From the IMG/VR virus record IMGVR_UViG_3300037067_027626: a stretch of 53,123 bases of DNA, one strand, 5' to 3'. This stretch comes from a virus (taxonomy: Duplodnaviria; Heunggongvirae; Uroviricota; Caudoviricetes). Below the pieces are notes generated by a model. The model worked only from the letters and a program-made list of their open reading frames with translations. It searched no databases and was not told the origin of the DNA. Shown here piece after piece: positions 2,173-31,931 of the stretch (positions within the stretch are counted from its first letter, which is position 1; each line of letters begins with the position of its first letter). A program made the position numbers and the translations under genes.

Positions 2173-3882
2173 TTGTGCGGAATAATTGGGATTATATCAA
2201 ATAAACCTGTAATTAACGAATTACTCAATAGTCTTTCTGTTATGTCTTACAGAGGACACGATTCTTTTGGTGTGGCGTTAGTAGATGATAATAAATTGAT
2301 TATTAATAAAGACGTATGCGAGATACGGGATTTAAAAGTAGATAAAACACTAAAAAGCAAGATAGGTCTTGGTCACAACCGTTGGGCTTCGGTTGGGAAA
2401 GTAACAAAAGAAAACGCCCATCCTTTTACCGATTGTTGTGGACAATTAGCCATCGCCCACAATGGTAATATTGAAAACTATAAGCAACTCAAAGATACAT
2501 TAATTAAACGTGGTCATATATTTACATCTGAAACCGATTCAGAAGTTATCTCGCATTTAATTGAGCATTATTTAAAACGGCATGGCTTTAATAATGCGTT
2601 TAGTATAGCGATTCGATGCTTGAAAGGTTCTTATGCGGTTGTAGCAATTCATAGAGACTATCCTTATTTAATGGTTAGTAGAAAAGATAGCCCATTGATG
2701 ATAGGCAGAAATAATGATTCTGTATATGTAGCCAGTGATGAGCAGGCATTTAACGGAATAGAGAATAAGACGGAGATAAAGGACTACCAAGTAATGAGTA
2801 TTTCGCTTGACGGTCATACCGAAGAAGTACACGAAGAAGAAACTCAAAAAAGCGGTTATGCCCATTATATGCTGAAAGAAATATACGAACAGCCTGATAC
2901 TTTGCTTGAAACACTGAAACAGGATAGAAATAAACTAACCAGCGTGTCAATGGACATTTTAAGAGCCAAGGATGTCATTTTAACCGCTTGTGGAACTTCA
3001 CGTTTTGCTACTATTGTAGGTAGATATTTGCTGTTAAAAATAGGTAAACGAATGGGTGAAACGGTAGTCGGTTCGGAACTTCAATACTTAGATGCTTCAT
3101 TTGGTGAAAATACATTAATCATAGCAGTATCGCAAAGTGGTGAAACTGCCGATGTTTTATCGGGTGTGAGATTAGCCAAGCAAAAAGGAAGTCCGATTGT
3201 TTCTATCATTAATAAACCGCTTTCATTATTAGAGAGATTGAGTAACGTAACCATTCCGATGAATTGTGGAGCAGAAATAGCGGTGGCTTCAACTAAGGCT
3301 TTTACGAGTGAATTGGTGATATTTTATCTCTTAGCCTACACATTAGCGAATAAATATGATGAGGGTATGGTGGAACTTTGCTCGTTGCCGAGTGCTATAA
3401 GAGAATGTCTATTGCAAATAGATAAAGTTAAGAAAGTTGCAGAAATGTTGTATACCACAGAACATATTTACTATATAGGGAAAGGTATAAATTTCGCCAT
3501 AGCTGGCGAATGTGCGTTAAAGTTCAAAGAAGTTTCTTATATTCATGCTGAGTCAATGGCGGCGGGCGAACTAAAACATGGCACACTCTCATTAATTGAA
3601 GAAGGAACACCAGTTATAGGAATTTGCCCCAATGATTATACGTATCAGGAAACTATAGCAAATTTGTACGAAATAAAAGCACGAAAAGGATTCGTTATAG
3701 GAATATCGGATAAGAATAATGATGTTTTCGATTCTTGGATACCGATACCGAAAGTTAAGGCTTTATATTATCCTCTAGTCTGTGTGGTAATCGGACAACT
3801 TTTGGCTTACTATGCCGCTATATTAAAAGGCATAAATCCCGACCTCCCCCGTTCACTTTGCAAGGCGGTGACAGTTGTTTAG
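2173..3882 (+). CDS. glmS: Glutamine--fructose-6-phosphate aminotransferase (isomerizing)
   Basis: N-terminal MCGIIG nucleophile, GHNRWA, AHNGNIEN, SQSGETAD, ELKHG, C-terminal NPDLPRSLCKAVTV. Confidence 0.97.
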   Translation: MCGIIGIISNKPVINELLNSLSVMSYRGHDSFGVALVDDNKLIINKDVCEIRDLKVDKTLKSKIGLGHNRWASVGKVTKENAHPFTDCCGQLAIAHNGNIENYKQLKDTLIKRGHIFTSETDSEVISHLIEHYLKRHGFNNAFSIAIRCLKGSYAVVAIHRDYPYLMVSRKDSPLMIGRNNDSVYVASDEQAFNGIENKTEIKDYQVMSISLDGHTEEVHEEETQKSGYAHYMLKEIYEQPDTLLETLKQDRNKLTSVSMDILRAKDVILTACGTSRFATIVGRYLLLKIGKRMGETVVGSELQYLDASFGENTLIIAVSQSGETADVLSGVRLAKQKGSPIVSIINKPLSLLERLSNVTIPMNCGAEIAVASTKAFTSELVIFYLLAYTLANKYDEGMVELCSLPSAIRECLLQIDKVKKVAEMLYTTEHIYYIGKGINFAIAGECALKFKEVSYIHAESMAAGELKHGTLSLIEEGTPVIGICPNDYTYQETIANLYEIKARKGFVIGISDKNNDVFDSWIPIPKVKALYYPLVCVVIGQLLAYYAAILKGINPDLPRSLCKAVTVV

Positions 3883-4609
3883 GATAATATTGTTTGATTT
3901 AGATGGTACTTTAACCGAAAGTAGATTACCTATATCAAAGGAAACTGCGGATTTGGTTAAGGAGTTGCTAAAAGATAAATATGTTGGTGTGGTATCAGGT
4001 TGTTCAATAGACCAGATGAAATATCAACTCGGCAGTGTCTTATCGTCTGATAATTTGAATAACCTATGTTTGTTTCCTTCAACTGCTACGTGTCTTTATG
4101 TTTATGACGGAGGTTGGGTTTGTAAATATAGAGAGGTACTAAATGGAATATTAGCAGAACGGATTAAACAAACTTTACTGAAAGTCTGTAGAAATATTAA
4201 AGTGGAAGAACCTTATGGGGAAGTGATAGACGATAGAGGCGGACAGATAGCGATTGCATTAATGGGGATTAATGCCCCGTTAGATTACAAAGCGTTATAT
4301 GACCCTTATTATAGAAAAAGATTATCGGTGAAACCGATACTAGAACAAGAATTGCCTGAATGCGAAATAACTATTGGTGGCACTACTACGATTACGGTAA
4401 CAAGAAAAGGAATAGATAAAACTAACTGCATATACTTGGTTAAGAAATATTTTAATATTAACAAGGATGAAATATTGTTTATTGGCGATACGATATTTGA
4501 GAATGGTAATGATTACCCAATGAAAAAAGCTGGCGTGGACTGTATTCAAGTGGCTAATCCAGATGAAACCAAAAGAATTATAGGGAGATTGTTGTGCGGT
4601 ATAAATTAA
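3875..4609 (+). CDS. HAD-superfamily IIB phosphomannomutase-like phosphohexomutase/phosphatase
   Basis: Motif I FDLDGTLT; GGTTTITV..KGIDK; IGD..FENGNDYP typical of eukaryotic-type PMM. Confidence 0.85.
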   Translation: MFRIILFDLDGTLTESRLPISKETADLVKELLKDKYVGVVSGCSIDQMKYQLGSVLSSDNLNNLCLFPSTATCLYVYDGGWVCKYREVLNGILAERIKQTLLKVCRNIKVEEPYGEVIDDRGGQIAIALMGINAPLDYKALYDPYYRKRLSVKPILEQELPECEITIGGTTTITVTRKGIDKTNCIYLVKKYFNINKDEILFIGDTIFENGNDYPMKKAGVDCIQVANPDETKRIIGRLLCGIN

Positions 4610-5025
4610 AAGAATTAGAGGAATCAGATATTAACGAAAGTTTATTTGAAACGCTTGGCAACTTGAGAAGTTGTGGGGAATTAACAGTCGATAAAGCAAG
4701 ATTGTTGCTAAAGGGGATTAAAGTAAATCCATTACATAAAATATATGTTGCGTTAGATGGTAAAGATATTGTGGGTATAGCTACGATTATTATTGAGCAA
4801 AAATTCATCAGAAACGGTGGTAAGGTAGGGCATATTGAAGATGTGGCTACTAACAAGGATTATGAAAGAAAAGGAATAGCGTCAGCAATCATACAGAAAC
4901 TCATTAGTATAGCAAAAGAACAAGGTTGCTACAAAGTAATATTAGACTGTAGTGAAGAAAATAAACCATTTTATAAGAAAAACGGATTCAAAGAGTGTGA
5001 ATACGAAATGAGGCTGGATTTGTGA
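4594..5025 (+). CDS. Glucosamine-6-phosphate N-acetyltransferase (GNA1-type GNAT)
   Basis: IEQKFIRNGGKVGHIEDV, KGIASAII, GCYKVILDCSEENKPFYKKNGF match the GNA1 pattern; adjacent to glmS. Confidence 0.88.
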   Translation: MRYKLKELEESDINESLFETLGNLRSCGELTVDKARLLLKGIKVNPLHKIYVALDGKDIVGIATIIIEQKFIRNGGKVGHIEDVATNKDYERKGIASAIIQKLISIAKEQGCYKVILDCSEENKPFYKKNGFKECEYEMRLDL

Positions 5026-10735: not shown

Positions 10736-11628
10736 TATTAGTCACTGGAGCATCGGGATTCGTAGGTTCGCATCTATGTAATAGATTAGTAAAAGAGGGT
10801 TATCAGGTTTTGGGTATAACTCATAATCGCATTAATCCTATGACAGAAACATTATTACAGAATAAGAATTTCAAGGTAGTCAATGGTGATATTATTGATG
10901 AGAAATTTGTGAGAAGTATATTCTTGAACAATGAAATAGATACGGTATTCCATCTTGCCGCCCATATACCAAATGCTTCGGGATTGGATTATATGGGAGT
11001 TAATGTTAAAGGAACATGTACCTTATTGACGGAATCTGATGAATACAATGTGAGTAATTTTATTTATGCCTCTAGTATGAGTGTTTATTCCGAACCAACA
11101 GTGTTCTTGCCTGTTACCGAAGAACATCCAGTAGGGAATACTAACTCTTATGGAGTTTCTAAACTGCAAGGGGAATCAGCCTGTAAAAGATTCTCAAATA
11201 ATATGATTATAACAATCTTGCGTTATGCAAGTGTTTATGGTAAAGGTTGCAGGCAACCGCTTGTCGTTGCTCGATTTGTGGATTTCGCACGTAATAATTT
11301 ACCTTTAACTATATATGGCGATGGTAGCCAGAGTAGTGATTTTGTATATATAGACGATGTAATCAATGGTAATTTACTCGCATGGAGAAAAGATAAGTCA
11401 GATTTATATAACATCGGTAGTGGACAAGAAATTACCATATTAGAATTAGCTCAGAATATTATTAAAATATTTAACTCAAAGTCGGAGATAGTATTTGCAG
11501 AAGTGGAATCAACTAGACCCTTTAGATTTTATTCTGACATAAGTAAAGCAAAAATAGAATTAGGGTATTCACCAATGGTTTTGGCAGAAGGATTGAAATT
11601 ATATGCAAAGGAATTGTTAGATGTATAG
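10732..11628 (+). CDS. NAD-dependent epimerase/dehydratase (extended SDR); last ~31 codons are the apparent replacement segment
   Basis: MILVTGASGFVG, YGVSK (YxxxK), IYGDGSQSSDFVYIDD; start at 10732 by ATGA coupling. Confidence 0.92.
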   Translation: MILVTGASGFVGSHLCNRLVKEGYQVLGITHNRINPMTETLLQNKNFKVVNGDIIDEKFVRSIFLNNEIDTVFHLAAHIPNASGLDYMGVNVKGTCTLLTESDEYNVSNFIYASSMSVYSEPTVFLPVTEEHPVGNTNSYGVSKLQGESACKRFSNNMIITILRYASVYGKGCRQPLVVARFVDFARNNLPLTIYGDGSQSSDFVYIDDVINGNLLAWRKDKSDLYNIGSGQEITILELAQNIIKIFNSKSEIVFAEVESTRPFRFYSDISKAKIELGYSPMVLAEGLKLYAKELLDV

Positions 11629-12787
11629 AACATTCAAATATAGAATTTATGCAAATAAAGAGATACTTGCAAAGACTGAAAATTGGCTAGAACTTTGTCG
11701 TAATCTTTATAACTGTGCGTTGGAACAAAGAATAGACGCATGGAAAAGACAAAGAATTACCTTATTTGAATATGCGCAATCCGCAGAATTACCACTTATT
11801 AAACAGACTAATCTTGAATATAAATACGTTAATGCACAAACATTGCAAGAAGTATTAGAGCGTTTAGAATTAGCCTACAAAAAGTTCTTCAAACGTAGAG
11901 TGAATCATGAAGGCAAAGGTGGATTCCCTAGATTTAAAGGTAAGAATAGATATGATTCTTTTACGCTTAAAAATACTGGTTGGAAGTTAGATGGTAAATA
12001 TATTTCTATACGTCATCTAGGTAAGTTCAAGTTAAAATTATCTCGTGAGATTCAAGGTGATATAAAGACTATAACAATTTGTAAATCTAAAACTAACCAT
12101 TGGTACGCTTGCTTTTCATGTGACAATATATCTGAAAAAAGACTTACGCAATCCGATAAAATAATTGGAATTGATGTAGGAATAAGGTCTTTTCTAACTG
12201 ATTCAGAAGGTGATAAAGTTGAAAATCCAAAATTTCTTAAACATACTTTGAGGGAATTAAGGGTAAGACAGCGTGCATTGGTAAGGAATAAGCGTAATTC
12301 TAATAGACGTAAAGAAACTAAATTACAACTTTCAAAATGCTATGAAAAAATAACCAATCAGCGTAAAGATTTTCATTATAAACTAGCAAATCAATATGTG
12401 GAGAATTATGGAGTTATATCAATAGAAAATCTTAATATTAGTGGATTAGTTAAGAACCATAAACTTGCAAGGGATATAAAAGATTGTGCGTGGGGGAATT
12501 TTATAGAGATACTTAAATTCAAAGCGGAAGAAGCTGGAAGGCAAGTTATTGAAGTAAACCCACATAATACAAGTAAGATGTGTTCTAATTGTGGGAAAAT
12601 CAACACATTTTTAAAACTATCTGATAGAGAGTGGGCTTGTTTAGAGTGTGGCACAATCCATGATAGAGATGAAAACGCAGCTATAAATATAAAGAGGCTT
12701 GGGCAGAGCCGTCAGACGCTAACGTGTCAGAATACTGAGAGCGTAGTCTGAGAATCTCTTTTGAATTTATTTGGAAGGGAGTGTCAA
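11533..12787 (+). mobile_element. Solo tnpB cassette 1 (IS200/IS605, IS1341-like) whose left part encodes the host gene C-terminus
   Basis: TTTAT at 11528-11532 before the junction; right end with subterminal hairpin 12755-12780 ending GTGTCAA (TCAA 12784-12787); no tnpA; flanked by two copies of S-D-I-S-K-A coding sequence. Confidence 0.75.
11621..12751 (+). CDS. tnpB: RNA-guided endonuclease TnpB (IS605 OrfB type)
   Basis: FKYRIY N-terminus; RuvC residues GIDVG, IENL, DRDENAAINI; Zn finger CSNCG/CLECG. Confidence 0.96.
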   Translation: MYRTFKYRIYANKEILAKTENWLELCRNLYNCALEQRIDAWKRQRITLFEYAQSAELPLIKQTNLEYKYVNAQTLQEVLERLELAYKKFFKRRVNHEGKGGFPRFKGKNRYDSFTLKNTGWKLDGKYISIRHLGKFKLKLSREIQGDIKTITICKSKTNHWYACFSCDNISEKRLTQSDKIIGIDVGIRSFLTDSEGDKVENPKFLKHTLRELRVRQRALVRNKRNSNRRKETKLQLSKCYEKITNQRKDFHYKLANQYVENYGVISIENLNISGLVKNHKLARDIKDCAWGNFIEILKFKAEEAGRQVIEVNPHNTSKMCSNCGKINTFLKLSDREWACLECGTIHDRDENAAINIKRLGQSRQTLTCQNTESVV

Positions 12788-12805
12788 TCGGATATTAGTA
12801 AGGCT
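12690..12805 (+). ncRNA. Putative omegaRNA of TnpB1 (scaffold to 12787, guide from 12788; 5' boundary uncertain)
   Basis: Nested stems TCAGAC/GTCTGA, ACGCT/AGCGT, TCAG-AATA-CTGA, hairpin TCTCTTTTG/TGGAAGGGA, then TCAA. Confidence 0.7.
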
Positions 12806-12823
12806 ATAGACGAGGGGATTTAA
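12788..12823 (+). pseudogene. Displaced 3' remnant of the upstream SDR gene (SDISKAIDEGI*)
   Basis: tcg gat att agt aag gct versus upstream tct gac ata agt aaa gca (11533-11550): same six amino acids. Confidence 0.65.
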
Positions 12824-12856
12824 ATGAGAGTTGAACTTTTAAAGGAGTCTGTTTAA

Positions 12857-28382: not shown

Positions 28383-29363
28383 GTGGTTAATTTTGAAAAC
28401 AAAGTAATATTAGTGACAGGGGCAACTGGTAGTTTTGGAACTCAATTTATAACCCAATTAAAGGATAGTGGGGCAAAAAAAATAGTAGTTTATAGTCGGG
28501 ATGAACTTAAACAATTTGATATGTCTGTTAAATTCAAAGAATTCCCCATAGAAATAGAATATATCGTGGGTGATATTAGAGATAGAGATAAGATGTTTTC
28601 ATCCATGAAAGGTATAAATTATGTAGCACACGCCGCAGCGTTGAAACAAGTTCCTACAGGTGAGAATTTTCCTAGTGAGGTAATACAAACAAATATCATT
28701 GGTACGAAAAATGTAGTAGATGCAGCGAGTTATTGTGAGGTAGAACGCCTGGTTTCGTTATCCACCGATAAAGCGGCTTATCCAATCTCTTGTTATGGGG
28801 CTACGAAACTAATTTCTGAGCGTATAGTTATGTCACAAAAGAGTGATACGATTAATGTATGCCTTAGATATGGTAATGTACTTGGTTCTCGTGGTTCAGT
28901 AATACCCCTCTGGAACAACCAAATTGAGAATCATTTGCCTATAACTATAACCTCACCCCTTATGACTCGTTTTTTTCTTTCGCTTTCCCAAGCGATACGA
29001 TTGGTTTACAGATGCTTTGATGCTTGTAATGGGGATTTAATTGTAATGAAACCACCTGCTACCTCAATAAAGACATTAGTATCAACTTTTGAATTAAAAT
29101 ATGGCTCATTGGCTCAGACCGTAATTGGAATAAGACCAGGCGAGAAACTACATGAAACATTACTCACTTCGGATGAAGTAGCGAGAGGCGCAGAAGAACA
29201 AGATGGTGATATTACGTATGTTAGAGTTCCCAAGAATAGTAATCAAAATTATTTTGATAAAGGCGATAGAGATGTTGAACCCAAAGATTTTACATCTCTT
29301 GATGCCAAACAATTAAATGCAGAACAAGTATTAGAAAAATTGAGAGAGGCTAATTTATTATGA
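28383..29363 (+). CDS. UDP-GlcNAc 4,6-dehydratase/epimerase (FnlA/CapE/PseB family)
   Basis: TGATGSFG, SRDELKQ, HAAALKQVP, STDKAAYP, RYGNVLGSRGSVIP, GIRPGEKLHE; GTG 28383 preferred start. Confidence 0.92.
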   Translation: MVNFENKVILVTGATGSFGTQFITQLKDSGAKKIVVYSRDELKQFDMSVKFKEFPIEIEYIVGDIRDRDKMFSSMKGINYVAHAAALKQVPTGENFPSEVIQTNIIGTKNVVDAASYCEVERLVSLSTDKAAYPISCYGATKLISERIVMSQKSDTINVCLRYGNVLGSRGSVIPLWNNQIENHLPITITSPLMTRFFLSLSQAIRLVYRCFDACNGDLIVMKPPATSIKTLVSTFELKYGSLAQTVIGIRPGEKLHETLLTSDEVARGAEEQDGDITYVRVPKNSNQNYFDKGDRDVEPKDFTSLDAKQLNAEQVLEKLREANLL

Positions 29364-30031
29364 AGGTTGGCATTACAGGTTGGAGAGGCTTTATAGGCTC
29401 TAAATTAAAAGATAAAATAGAAAATCCCATATTATTTGATGGGGATTTAAGGGATTTAAGTAAAGTAAAACTGTTTGTAAAAGAGTGCGATAGGATTTAT
29501 CACGTAGCAGGATTGAATAGAGATAAAGAAGGAAAGATATTAGCCAATAATATAATTTCCACAGGTAATCTTATACTTGCCTCTAAAATGGTGCAAAAAG
29601 ATATTGACTTAATATTCCTGTCATCGAAACAAATTTATTGGAACGCAAATTCAGAGTATGGCACAACAAAACAAATTGAGGAATCTATTGCAAAGATGGC
29701 TTGCAGATGGTGTATCTACAGAATACCCAATGTTTACGGAACAGGCTGTAAGCCTTTTTATAATTCAGTTGTCGCTACATTCGCTTATCAGTTATCGCAT
29801 AATCAGAAAGTAACGGTGAAAGATTCTAATGTAACTAGGGAATTTGTTTATGTGGATGATTTAATAAATGAATTGCTCAAACCCTCATTCCAAAATGTCA
29901 TTGATGTAAGGGGAGAGGTATTAACGATAGGTGAGATATATGGGTATTTGACTAATCAGTTAGGACAACATGAGAAATTATATAAATGCATGGAATATTA
30001 TAAAAATAAAGAGATAGAGCATGTTAGTTAA
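29360..30031 (+). CDS. Short SDR, FnlB/CapF N-terminal reductase-like domain; last 32 codons are the apparent replacement segment
   Basis: TGWRGFIG, YGTTK, RIPNVYGTGCKPFYNSVVATFAYQL is the CapF/FnlB signature; no C-terminal cupin. Confidence 0.85.
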   Translation: MKVGITGWRGFIGSKLKDKIENPILFDGDLRDLSKVKLFVKECDRIYHVAGLNRDKEGKILANNIISTGNLILASKMVQKDIDLIFLSSKQIYWNANSEYGTTKQIEESIAKMACRWCIYRIPNVYGTGCKPFYNSVVATFAYQLSHNQKVTVKDSNVTREFVYVDDLINELLKPSFQNVIDVRGEVLTIGEIYGYLTNQLGQHEKLYKCMEYYKNKEIEHVS

Positions 30032-31297
30032 TCAATCATTTAAATATGAATTGAAGCCAAATAATAAACAGATAGGTTTATTATTTAAATGTTGTGGTGT
30101 AGCTAGATTTGCCTATAATTGGGGTCTTGCTCAACGCAAAGAAATATATAAAATAAAAAAAGGGAAAGAAAGGTTGACTAATGCAACAAAACAATTTAGG
30201 GAACTTAATGCATTAAAGAAAACTATGTTTCCTTGGATGTATGAAGTTTCAAAATATGTTCCACAGTCGGCACTGAAGGATTTAGACCAAGCATATTCTA
30301 ATTTGTATAGACGGGTTAGAAACCACGAAAGAAAAATAGGTAAGCCAAAGTTTAAGAAGAAAGGATTACATGATAGTTTTAGGATAGTTAATAATAGTAC
30401 TAATCAAAAACAAGTAATAAAAGATATCAGGATAGAAAATGATTCCATTCGTATTTCTAAAATAGGTTTTATTCGTACTAAAGAATCAGTATCTAAATTA
30501 AAGGGTAGAATATTAAATGTAACTATTAGTCGTGAGGCAGATAAATGGTTTTGCTCTTTATGTGTAGAATTAGATAGACCTAGTCCGCAACAGGTACGAG
30601 GTGAAATTATTGGGATAGATTTGGGGATAAACTGTTTTGCGACAATATCAAGTGGAAATAAAATCGTGACTATCTATTCGCCAAAGCCATTACGTAAGAG
30701 AATTAAGAAATTAAAACACTTACACCGAAGGTTAAATAATAAGCATGAGGGTTCTAGTAATCGTAAAAAAGCACAATTAAGATTAGCTATATTGTACAAG
30801 AGAATTAAGAATATCCGCAAAGATTTTATATCAAAAGAGACTTCTGAACTGGCGAAAACCAAGTCAGTTATTGTTATTGAGGATTTGAATGTCTCTGGTA
30901 TGCTTAAAAATCATCGTTTAGCAAGGTCGATAGGCGATGAAGGATGGGGTGAATTTAGGAGAATGCTTGAATACAAAACACAATGGTATGGTTCTAAGTT
31001 GATTAAAATACCACGATTTGAACCTAGTTCTAAACGCTGTAATCACTGTGGTGAAATAAACCATGATTTAAAGTTGAGTGATAGAATATGGGTATGTTTG
31101 AATTGTGGTATAGTAAACGAGCGTGACCCGAATGCCGCCCATAATATCAGAGACAAGGGAATAGAACTTTTAGATACCGATAGTTTGTCGGAACTTCAAG
31201 CCTGTGGAGTTGATGTAAGACCATCACAACGGATGGCAGTTGACAATGAAGCAGGAATTAAACGCATTTTATATAAATGATAAGATTTAAGGAACGG
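29933..31297 (+). mobile_element. Solo tnpB cassette 2 (IS607-like) whose left part encodes the host gene C-terminus
   Basis: GG at 29930-29931 before the junction; right end ...GAAGCAGGAA...GGAACGG ending 31297; no serine-recombinase tnpA; flanked by two homologous copies of the SDR tail. Confidence 0.78.
30021..31280 (+). CDS. tnpB: RNA-guided endonuclease TnpB (IS607-associated type)
   Basis: ARFAYNWGL, FPWMYEVSK; RuvC GIDLG, IEDL, RDPNAAHNI; Zn finger CNHCG/CLNCG. Confidence 0.96.
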   Translation: MLVNQSFKYELKPNNKQIGLLFKCCGVARFAYNWGLAQRKEIYKIKKGKERLTNATKQFRELNALKKTMFPWMYEVSKYVPQSALKDLDQAYSNLYRRVRNHERKIGKPKFKKKGLHDSFRIVNNSTNQKQVIKDIRIENDSIRISKIGFIRTKESVSKLKGRILNVTISREADKWFCSLCVELDRPSPQQVRGEIIGIDLGINCFATISSGNKIVTIYSPKPLRKRIKKLKHLHRRLNNKHEGSSNRKKAQLRLAILYKRIKNIRKDFISKETSELAKTKSVIVIEDLNVSGMLKNHRLARSIGDEGWGEFRRMLEYKTQWYGSKLIKIPRFEPSSKRCNHCGEINHDLKLSDRIWVCLNCGIVNERDPNAAHNIRDKGIELLDTDSLSELQACGVDVRPSQRMAVDNEAGIKRILYK

Positions 31298-31317
31298 GAA
31301 GTGTATGAATATCTTAC
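31180..31317 (+). ncRNA. Putative omegaRNA of TnpB2 (scaffold to ~31297, guide from 31298; boundaries approximate)
   Basis: By analogy to tnpB 3' ends: GCCTGTGGAG...GAAGCAGGAA...AACGG; structure not folded computationally. Confidence 0.55.
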
Positions 31318-31384
31318 TGTTAGATTAGGACAACATGAAAACCTCAAAGAATGTCTTGAATATTATACGGAGTTAGTTCGATGA
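31298..31384 (+). pseudogene. Displaced original 3' end of the upstream SDR gene (EVYEYLTVRLGQHENLKECLEYYTELVR*)
   Basis: 15/23 aa and 47/69 nt identical to 29933-30001 (EIYGYLTNQLGQHEKLYKCMEYY); its TGA overlaps the next ATG (ATGA 31381-31384). Confidence 0.85.
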
Positions 31385-31572
31385 AATTGCAAGGCGTTAG
31401 TTTTGTATTAACGGGTTTATCTTTAATAATAGTAACAATAACTATGTTTATTCCTGCGTTAGTAGAGCATAGACCTAATGATAGTTGGATTGGAATGTTA
31501 ACTATCATATTTGGTTTGGTATTTGCTTATACAGGTTATTTAATGATTAAAAAGAAGAAGGCTAAAGTATGA
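31381..31572 (+). CDS. Small 2-TM membrane protein
   Basis: Two hydrophobic segments, basic tail; coupled to both neighbours. Confidence 0.6.
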   Translation: MKLQGVSFVLTGLSLIIVTITMFIPALVEHRPNDSWIGMLTIIFGLVFAYTGYLMIKKKKAKV

Positions 31573-31931
31573 ATCCCTTATTTATAAACAAAGAAGGCTC
31601 ATTCCAAGAGATTGCTCATTATGATGATGTTGAGTTTGGACAAGTAAGTTTGCTCACAATCAATCCAAAGTGTAGTCGGGGTGGGCATTATCATAAAGTT
31701 AAGAAAGAGTGGTTTTGTGCGATACATGGTGAATGCGAAATGGAAATAATTAATATAAAAACTAAAGAAGAACGCACAGTAGATATGGGCGGAATTAAAG
31801 CGGATTTAGTACCAATAATGCCTTATGAATATCACACATTGATAAATAACGGTGATGAAATCTGTAAAGTAATAATCATAGCCAGTGTTAAATACACCAT
31901 CATGGAAGATGACACATTTAAGGAGTATTAG
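31569..31931 (+). CDS. Cupin-fold sugar epimerase (FnlB/CapF C-terminal or WxcM-like)
   Basis: GQVSLLTINP, RGGHYHKVKKEWF, PYEYHTLIN. Confidence 0.85.
   Translation: MNPLFINKEGSFQEIAHYDDVEFGQVSLLTINPKCSRGGHYHKVKKEWFCAIHGECEMEIINIKTKEERTVDMGGIKADLVPIMPYEYHTLINNGDEICKVIIIASVKYTIMEDDTFKEY

Follow-up and report, generated by a model that had tools for sequence, protein, structure and literature searches.

TnpB proteins are known to restore their own transposon after its excision, and the persistence of many tnpB genes that have no transposase is an open question. Prophages e14 and phage 21 in the icd gene of Escherichia coli, like integrative elements in the 3′ ends of tRNA genes, bring a substitute 3′ end with them and leave the original end stranded at the far junction. 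Among described TnpB systems, the nearest is CboTnpB from an IS607-family IStron of C. botulinum (bioRxiv 10.1101/2023.11.20.567912; PMC10690162), which has a strict GG core, a transposon-adjacent motif (TAM) of 5′-TGGG-3′ and a scaffold ending in UCGG, and which avoids cutting itself at the right end because position −3 of the motif, the critical position, is occupied there by a C (bioRxiv 10.1101/2023.11.20.567912). Here we describe a tnpB gene, tnpB2, in a 53,123-nt stretch of DNA from a virus of the Caudoviricetes (IMG/VR record IMGVR_UViG_3300037067_027626; the whole stretch is hereafter called the window, and its first letter is position 1). The gene is lodged within the terminal ~30 codons of a viral reductase gene of a glycan pathway, termed gene X, and the layout of the locus is established: a diverged in-frame copy of the gene's tail stands in front of tnpB2 and keeps gene X whole, tnpB2 and its guide-RNA scaffold follow, and the guide that comes next is the displaced tail itself. 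We consider the locus to be, more likely than not, a transposase-less TnpB/guide-RNA homing cassette of IS607 type that is immune to its own guide; its cutting and homing we infer from sequence.

As in CboTnpB, the protein here is predicted to be an RNA-guided RuvC nuclease whose guide is the DNA outside the right end; both systems have a scaffold ending in CGG, an NGGG flank motif and relatives with a serine-recombinase tnpA, and both live inside genes. The cassette, unlike CboTnpB, lacks tnpA, a left end and a group I intron. The IStron relieves its gene by RNA splicing, whereas the cassette does so at the DNA level with a diverged spare gene end and, having no transposase, could only serve homing into other genomes and not restoration after excision. 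The genes for SegF, SegG and MobE, free-standing homing endonucleases of T-even phages that act by intronless homing (PMC13565253), are likewise wedged between or inside conserved virus genes, tell self from target by substitutions in the conserved gene, and are predicted to bring about the co-conversion or exclusion of a co-infecting relative. Those enzymes recognise their sites by protein, whereas the cassette would do so by an RNA guide and a short motif; its stranded tail, without counterpart in the Seg/Mob loci, is kept because only DNA adjoining the element can template the guide. The e14, phage 21 and tRNA elements are alike in that a substitute end keeps the target gene intact, but they rely on a site-specific integrase and an att core that is identical at both junctions; no integrase gene adjoins the cassette, its junctions share at most GG, and its stranded end doubles as the predicted nuclease guide. 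A 2026 OMEGA review (PMC13565253) proposes "transposon non-restorative homing", treated there as theoretical for transposons, and a further study (PMC11870625) reports the TnpB-driven spread of IS605 in plasmid populations. In these cases, as would apply here, an empty orthologous site on a second DNA molecule is cut by TnpB, and no transposase is needed to copy the element in; they concern whole insertion sequences in neutral sites, and we found in neither text a cassette that mends its target gene with a diverged, guide-mismatched gene end. In full-text literature searches, no account of a TnpB cassette that brings its own substitute gene end came to light.

The locus is defined by the two copies of the gene X tail (Table 1). 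The 69 nt at 29933–30001 (EIYGYLTNQLGQHEKLYKCMEYY) recur at 31298–31366 (EVYEYLTVRLGQHENLKECLEYY) with 47/69 nt and 15/23 aa identical, over 23 codons in frame. When the upstream 69-mer was slid ungapped across both strands of the window, the background averaged 20.1 matches (sd 3.8) and the top unrelated match reached 37, placing the similarity of the two tails ~7 standard deviations over background. Mismatches between the tails number 8/3/11 by codon position and are spread across all 69 nt with no concentration in the guide; seven of them fall in the first 20 nt (positions 3, 4, 6, 11, 12, 16, and 18). The upstream copy is the in-frame end of gene X and is preceded by the codon GGT (29930–29932). 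The downstream copy begins in frame directly after ...GGAACGG (31291–31297) and belongs to an intact 35-codon open reading frame (ORF), whose ATG overlaps the tnpB2 stop and whose end shares an ATGA overlap with the following 63-aa ORF. An earlier note on this DNA (the original prediction) had given the same identities and the seven mismatches in the first 20 nt, all of which are exact, and its account of the in-frame start after ...AACGG, the ATGA overlap into the next gene and the upstream glycine codon GGT agrees in every respect with the sequence.

The window is part of a ~125-kb contig, and an assembly chimera is unlikely because the identical arrangement occurs in a second assembly: contig L001 (ENA ERZ27247358) is 100% identical over 7,904 bp, arrangement included, and carries the stranded tail as an annotated 35-aa gene. 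The duplication of the gene end is thereby confirmed as real. Separately, a 57-kb Logan contig from SRR18595300 has as its final listed gene a 283-aa call at the tnpB2 position, compared with 419 aa for the complete gene; this contig may break inside tnpB2, and the element may be repeated or polymorphic in that sample.

Comparison with 90 orthologues of gene X distinguishes the native tail from the replacement. The stranded tail is the closer one in 74 of them and the resident tail in 7 (mean identity 15.4 vs. 13.2 of 23 residues), although the orthologues are not independent and the Wilcoxon p is only indicative. Residues unseen in the orthologues make up 4/23 of the resident tail (192–214; G195, Q200, Y208, and M211) and 4/191 of the gene body (1–191), an excess in the tail at Fisher p=0.005, and none of the 23 positions of the stranded tail. 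Deviations at conserved columns come to 6/19, 24/128 and 3/19, respectively. By these counts, the stranded tail resembles the rest of gene X in its evolution and the resident tail stands apart, which agrees with the earlier claim that the stranded tail is the original end: its fit to the family equals that of the gene body, and it is the resident tail that deviates. Two rare residues occur in both tails, a Q in LGQHE (Q12, 8% of orthologues) and an E in EYY (E21, 4%), so that the spare tail probably derives from a sister allele and not from a distant gene.

The same counts bear on the opposite polarity, in which the whole upstream gene would be native and tnpB would have arrived after its stop, dragging a homologous fragment from a previous host. 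Elements can transduce flanking DNA, and the closest relatives of TnpB2 are intergenic and directly adjoin genes, as such an arrival would have it. This polarity is nonetheless improbable, with the resident tail as the outlier and the stranded tail as typical as the body. The ATGA coupling of the stranded tail to the next operon gene is also the normal state of this junction in orthologues, and in a second case of the layout (L120, below) it is the resident copy that is without a Trp kept by both orthologues and by the predicted target.

TnpB2 matches three Pfam families (Table 1) with E-values of 1e-15 for the HTH domain, 5e-26 for the RuvC domain (OrfB_IS605) and 7e-22 for the zinc-ribbon TNB domain, all past the curated cut-offs. 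It aligns over its full length with ISDra2 TnpB (8bf8/8exa, E 1e-70), a stronger match than that to chain 8iaz (E 3e-48), and its residues D200, E287 and D369 align with the ISDra2 TnpB catalytic motifs DVG, TEH and DRD. These three residues, together with C340, C343 and C362, are invariant in 33 relatives, and C359 is nearly so. With the D-E-D triad and the CxxC...CxxC zinc finger both intact, TnpB2 is predicted to be an RNA-guided RuvC nuclease.

We collected 160 TnpB loci related to TnpB2. In ~55 of these, the right end is conserved after the tnpB stop as ...TAAGTTTnnnn(A/G)GAACGG, and the sequence beyond it is unrelated between loci. In the window, the motif GGAACGG^ (the caret marks the junction here and below) ends at 31297, which makes the first base of the stranded tail both the first outside the element and the first of the guide. 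A consensus fold of the 150 nt before this end in 32 loci (RNAalifold) has 24 pairs, of which 23 show compensatory changes, and the window carries all of its conserved blocks. The right end thus lies where it had been placed before, its motif shared by ~55 loci and the scaffold up to 31297 backed by covariation. Against Rfam, the scaffold gave no match at the gathering threshold, with chance snoRNA matches only at E < 10.

Given that TnpB2 is embedded in, and translationally coupled to, the glycan operon and is unaccompanied by a transposase, we also considered whether it might be a domesticated RNA-guided DNA-binding regulator of this operon, similar to TldR proteins, and not a nuclease. TldRs, however, are nuclease-dead, whereas TnpB2 is full length with its triad and zinc finger intact; moreover, a search for the guide across the 53-kb window allowing three mismatches returned no match besides the guide template itself. 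A regulator of this kind is very improbable.

The clade is of IS607 type, since about half of the relatives with the right end carry a serine-recombinase tnpA directly upstream of tnpB: such a TnpA (YxRVSS motif, MerR-like N-terminus) is found in ~19 of 37 relatives that have the same right end and an abutting upstream ORF. In five independent, related complete copies, GGG stands immediately 5′ of the left end (flanks CGGGG, GGGGG, TAGGG, GGGGG, and ACGGG), and left-end conservation begins at (T)TTAA..., giving a left end of TTAAAAGCTGTTCC... The earlier assumption of a G-rich TAM for IS607 elements fits both these flanks and the TGGG of CboTnpB. The window itself shows the GG core and a G-rich motif: its right end reads ...AACGG, the target is inferred as AGGG^GAAGTG and the orthologue has CGGG^GAAGTG. 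As at the CboTnpB right end, the window right end (ACGG) has a C at position −3. No tnpA is found upstream of tnpB2, where the neighbouring gene is the reductase and the two ORFs overlap by 11 nt; nor is there anything comparable to TTAAAAGCTGTTCC in the 88 nt, taken up by the spare tail, between 29933 and the tnpB2 start. For a cassette that has neither transposase nor left end, restorative homing upon excision is not an option.

One locus of the collection, L059, has an IS200-type Y1 transposase-like ORF (KYHIAFCPKYRRK; 2506–2931), not a serine recombinase, in front of a TnpB with a GAACGG-like motif. This motif lies 89 nt past the tnpB stop, compared with the usual 8–30 nt, and may not be a true right end.

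Loci without tnpB reveal the state of the gene end before the element. The tnpB-free orthologues L166 and L167 read ATG AGT ATC GGG^GAA GTG TAT GAG TAT CTG ACT, with GAAGTGTATGAGTATCTGAC after the GGG; they match the guide at 18 of 20 positions (mismatches at 12 and 18, positions 1–11 perfect) and have CGGG before it. The original prediction had put the empty junction at ATA GGG^GAA GTG, and these orthologues reproduce it with a synonymous Ile codon (ATC) and two wobble changes. The resident copy reads ATA GGT^GAG ATA TAT GGG TAT TTG AC, with GGT in place of the expected GGG (T at motif position −1) and 7/20 mismatches to the guide, including positions 3, 4, and 6; in sequence, then, it departs from the inferred target at the motif and in the seed, both of which the original prediction had proposed to be lost. 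At the sequence level, the guides of the window and of L120 (below) both match element-free orthologous alleles.

The tnpB-free loci (L165, L166/L167 and the P0002 contig) have a single reductase tail that overlaps the next gene by 8–26 nt, this being the cupin gene or, in L166/L167, a 97-aa ORF. The prediction of direct coupling to the next gene therefore stands as far as the overlap goes and fails as to the neighbour, which is no homologue of the 63-aa ORF found in the window. No tnpB-free orthologous locus that we collected has two tails, the arrangement named beforehand as speaking against the interpretation, and the interpretation is supported. This absence also counts against a pre-existing tandem duplication of the gene end, between whose copies tnpB would have inserted by chance. 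The conserved right end is followed without a gap by the downstream copy, and the coincidence would have to recur in L120 and at a second tnpB of the window (TnpB1, below), so that we give this scenario next to no credence.

A survey of flank similarity in 127 TnpB loci yielded, besides the window, only one convincing case, the unrelated viral contig L120 (IMGVR_UViG_3300035696_001556, IMG/VR, 173 kb), with a TnpB that shares 42% identity with TnpB2. Over 92 nt, its spare and stranded tails (2849–2980 and 4226–4354) are ~79% identical at the nucleotide level. The gene upstream of tnpB finishes with ...YIFEDQVDYVAGIDEEDGRLHFCIEMVLDIE..., and the right end AGAACGG^ is followed directly by EDQVDYMPGIDDEDNRLRFSIELVLDIE..., giving the guide AGGACCAGGTAGATTATATG. 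In L163 and L164, whose proteins are 44–48% identical to that of the L120 gene, the corresponding site reads ATC TGG G^AG GAC CAG GTA GAT TA(T/C) ATG CC, and in L163 TGGG is followed by a 20/20 match to the L120 guide. The L120 resident copy reads ATT TTT GAA GAC..., with Trp replaced by Phe and TGGG by TTTG; these changes destroy the motif at −3 and −2, and positions 2, 18, and 20 mismatch the guide. As in the window, the stranded tail retains the conserved residues (the W-adjacent block, YMP, RF, and ELVL) and the resident tail departs from them.

L163 has a TnpB of its own (3656–4795, 379 aa, hairpin ends) ~180 nt after the stop of its orthologue of the L120 target gene. We rejected it as an example of the layout, since it has no stranded tail and is an ordinary intergenic insertion of IS605 type; the gene end in L120 and L163 may be a recurrent TnpB landing place in this virus group. 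Other candidates were set aside as GC-rich low-complexity matches (L056, L060, L061, L066, L021, L135, and L145) or, by appearance, as flanking paralogues (L100 and L138). In the window itself, TnpB1 (11621–12751, 376 aa, of a different lineage; region 11533–12856) starts on the stop codon of a short-chain dehydrogenase/reductase (SDR) epimerase gene. After its ...GTCAA comes TCGGATATTAGTAAGGCT (SDISKA), a copy of the SDISKA block of the upstream gene, in a remnant that stops after 11 codons. At the nucleotide level the TnpB1 flank similarity falls short of significance (score 10 against a null 99th percentile of 13), and the resemblance lies in the SDISKA hexapeptide.

Three further loci of the collection showed features of their own. 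In L147, a 47-nt diverged direct repeat (2939–2984 and 4180–4226), apparently non-coding, brackets tnpB, 13 nt before its ATG and 24 nt after its stop. In L135 (guide at 4213, just after the right end), the first 10 guide nucleotides (GGATCGTGAC) recur at 2911, 141 nt upstream of the tnpB ATG, with ACTGGG before them; this may be a left junction with a short target repeat or a chance match, 14/20 being within the null range. The TnpB of L168, among the closest relatives of TnpB2 (68% identity), ends with GAAACAG^, and its guide spans the following phage gene's ribosome-binding site and start codon (3739–3790); it represents the same lineage at an intergenic site, within a virus-like contig made up of small ORFans.

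If TnpB2 acts as its sequence suggests, the nuclease, loaded with a guide cut from the operon transcript, would cleave uninterrupted native alleles (e.g., AGGG or CGGG followed by GAAGTGTATGAATATC) in co-infecting relatives. The break would then be repaired from the cassette-bearing genome, and the spare tail, tnpB and scaffold would be copied in, a form of non-restorative or "intronless" homing; alternatively, the break may merely damage the competitor genome. Both the resident copy (AGGT followed by GAGATATATGGGTATT) and the right-end junction (ACGG) would escape cutting. The stranded tail follows of necessity from the TnpB design, in which DNA flanking the right end has to template the guide, and the spare tail would make residence in a useful gene tolerable. 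The spare tail most likely arose as a copy of a sister allele and later evolved aberrantly while hitch-hiking with the cassette.

Such a cassette would offer a concrete answer to how tnpB genes persist without a transposase: the nuclease could occupy a conserved gene harmlessly by way of a guide-mismatched spare end while keeping the wild-type allele as its target. The sequence itself gives the target, the motif and the allele presumed to be resistant; one tnpB-free orthologue offers a near-perfect target for the guide of the window, and another a 20/20 target for that of L120. Were it to work, this would be a natural RNA-guided gene drive between viruses, a cut-and-replace system with a guide-mismatched repair template. 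More tentatively, and with somewhat less than even confidence, we suggest that gene-internal TnpB cassettes with a guide-mismatched spare gene end are a distinct and recurrent lifestyle in large viral genomes: transposase-free gene drives seated in conserved coding sequence, which turn the displaced end into a guide against the wild-type allele of competitors and thereby spread, or exclude rivals, in co-infection. If so, the aberrant evolution of the spare end would be a signature of hitch-hiking with the drive.

Several points weigh against a homing cassette. Neither the reductase protein nor the exact stranded-tail DNA retrieved an empty allele from IMG/VR, whether of this virus or of any close relative, and the nearest of the 208 gene X homologues (214–230 aa) is only 65% identical. 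The resident motif is altered only at −1 (GGG to GGT), while the critical position in CboTnpB is −3. As the differences between the tails are spread evenly, escape from self-cutting leaves most of their divergence unexplained. The layout is shared by only 2 of the ~57 loci that end in this motif, and L002, L003, and L168, the closest to TnpB2, are intergenic with no tail duplication. Finally, homing does not explain the mechanism that first placed a spare tail before tnpB.

The main rival, should TnpB now be inactive, is a passive recombination scar. In this reading, one copy of the element within the gene end and another just past the stop codon would have undergone unequal recombination in sister or related genomes; tnpA and the left end would have been deleted later, leaving TnpB as an inactive remnant. 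A scar would be consistent with the absent tnpA and the lack of room for a left end, with the rarity of the layout among relatives, with the occurrence of nearby insertions such as that in L163, and with the two rare residues (Q12 and E21) shared by the tails, as expected of copies from one lineage. An inactive remnant, on the other hand, is difficult to square with a fully intact TnpB and guide scaffold, or with a stranded tail that has acquired neither stop nor frameshift despite 32% nt divergence from its copy. In addition, the resident motif is altered in two independent cases (GGG to GGT in the window, TGGG to TTTG in L120), and the guides still match the orthologous wild-type alleles. 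We therefore regard the scar as unlikely, although it deserves to be taken seriously. Unequal recombination between two nearby insertions is in itself a plausible route to the first duplication; it is compatible with homing, and the scar reading disputes only the present activity of the cassette.

Table 1. Coordinates of gene X, the tnpB2 cassette and the adjoining ORF in the window.
Feature	Position	Strand	Remarks
Reductase gene X, 223 aa, full length	29360..30031	+	Pfam Epimerase/Polysacc_synt_2; last ~32 codons are the replacement tail
ATA GGT, resident equivalent of the TAM (AGGT; native motif inferred as AGGG)	29927..29932	+	Orthologue L166 has ATC GGG
Resident (replacement) C-terminal tail	29933..30031	+	29933–30001 homologous to the stranded tail, then private extension KNKEIEHVS and stop
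tnpB2, 419 aa	30021..31280	+	Pfam HTH_OrfB_IS605, OrfB_IS605, Cas12f1-like_TNB
Guide-RNA (omega-RNA) scaffold, ending ...GATAAGATTTAAGGAACGG	31176..31297	+	Consensus fold of 32 relatives; overlaps the tnpB 3′ end
Predicted guide, 16–20 nt, GAAGTGTATGAATATCTTAC	31298..31317	+	Begins where the conserved right end stops; doubles as the first codons of the stranded tail
Stranded original tail, 35-codon ORF	31277..31384	+	Homologous part 31298–31366; stop 31382–31384; ATGA overlaps at both ends
63-aa hydrophobic ORF	31381..31572	+	ATGA overlap with the stranded tail and with the cupin gene at 31569

Gene X encodes a CapF N-domain-like SDR of the UDP-2-acetamido-2,6-dideoxy-hexulose 4-reductase type, and several of its homologues are named UDP-2-acetamido-2,6-beta-L-arabino-hexul-4-ose reductase by the Joint Genome Institute (JGI). 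The gene order is CapE-like, reductase X, cupin, and UDP-GlcNAc 2-epimerase. The operon is still readable, since tnpB2, the stranded-tail ORF and the downstream genes are chained by stop/start overlaps. A Pfam search with the 63-aa ORF returned no match. The CapF-like function appears here divided into the SDR gene and the cupin gene (31569–31931), with the 63-aa ORF, which has no relatives, in between; in orthologous clusters, the cupin gene directly overlaps the SDR gene, or an unrelated 97-aa ORF lies between the two.

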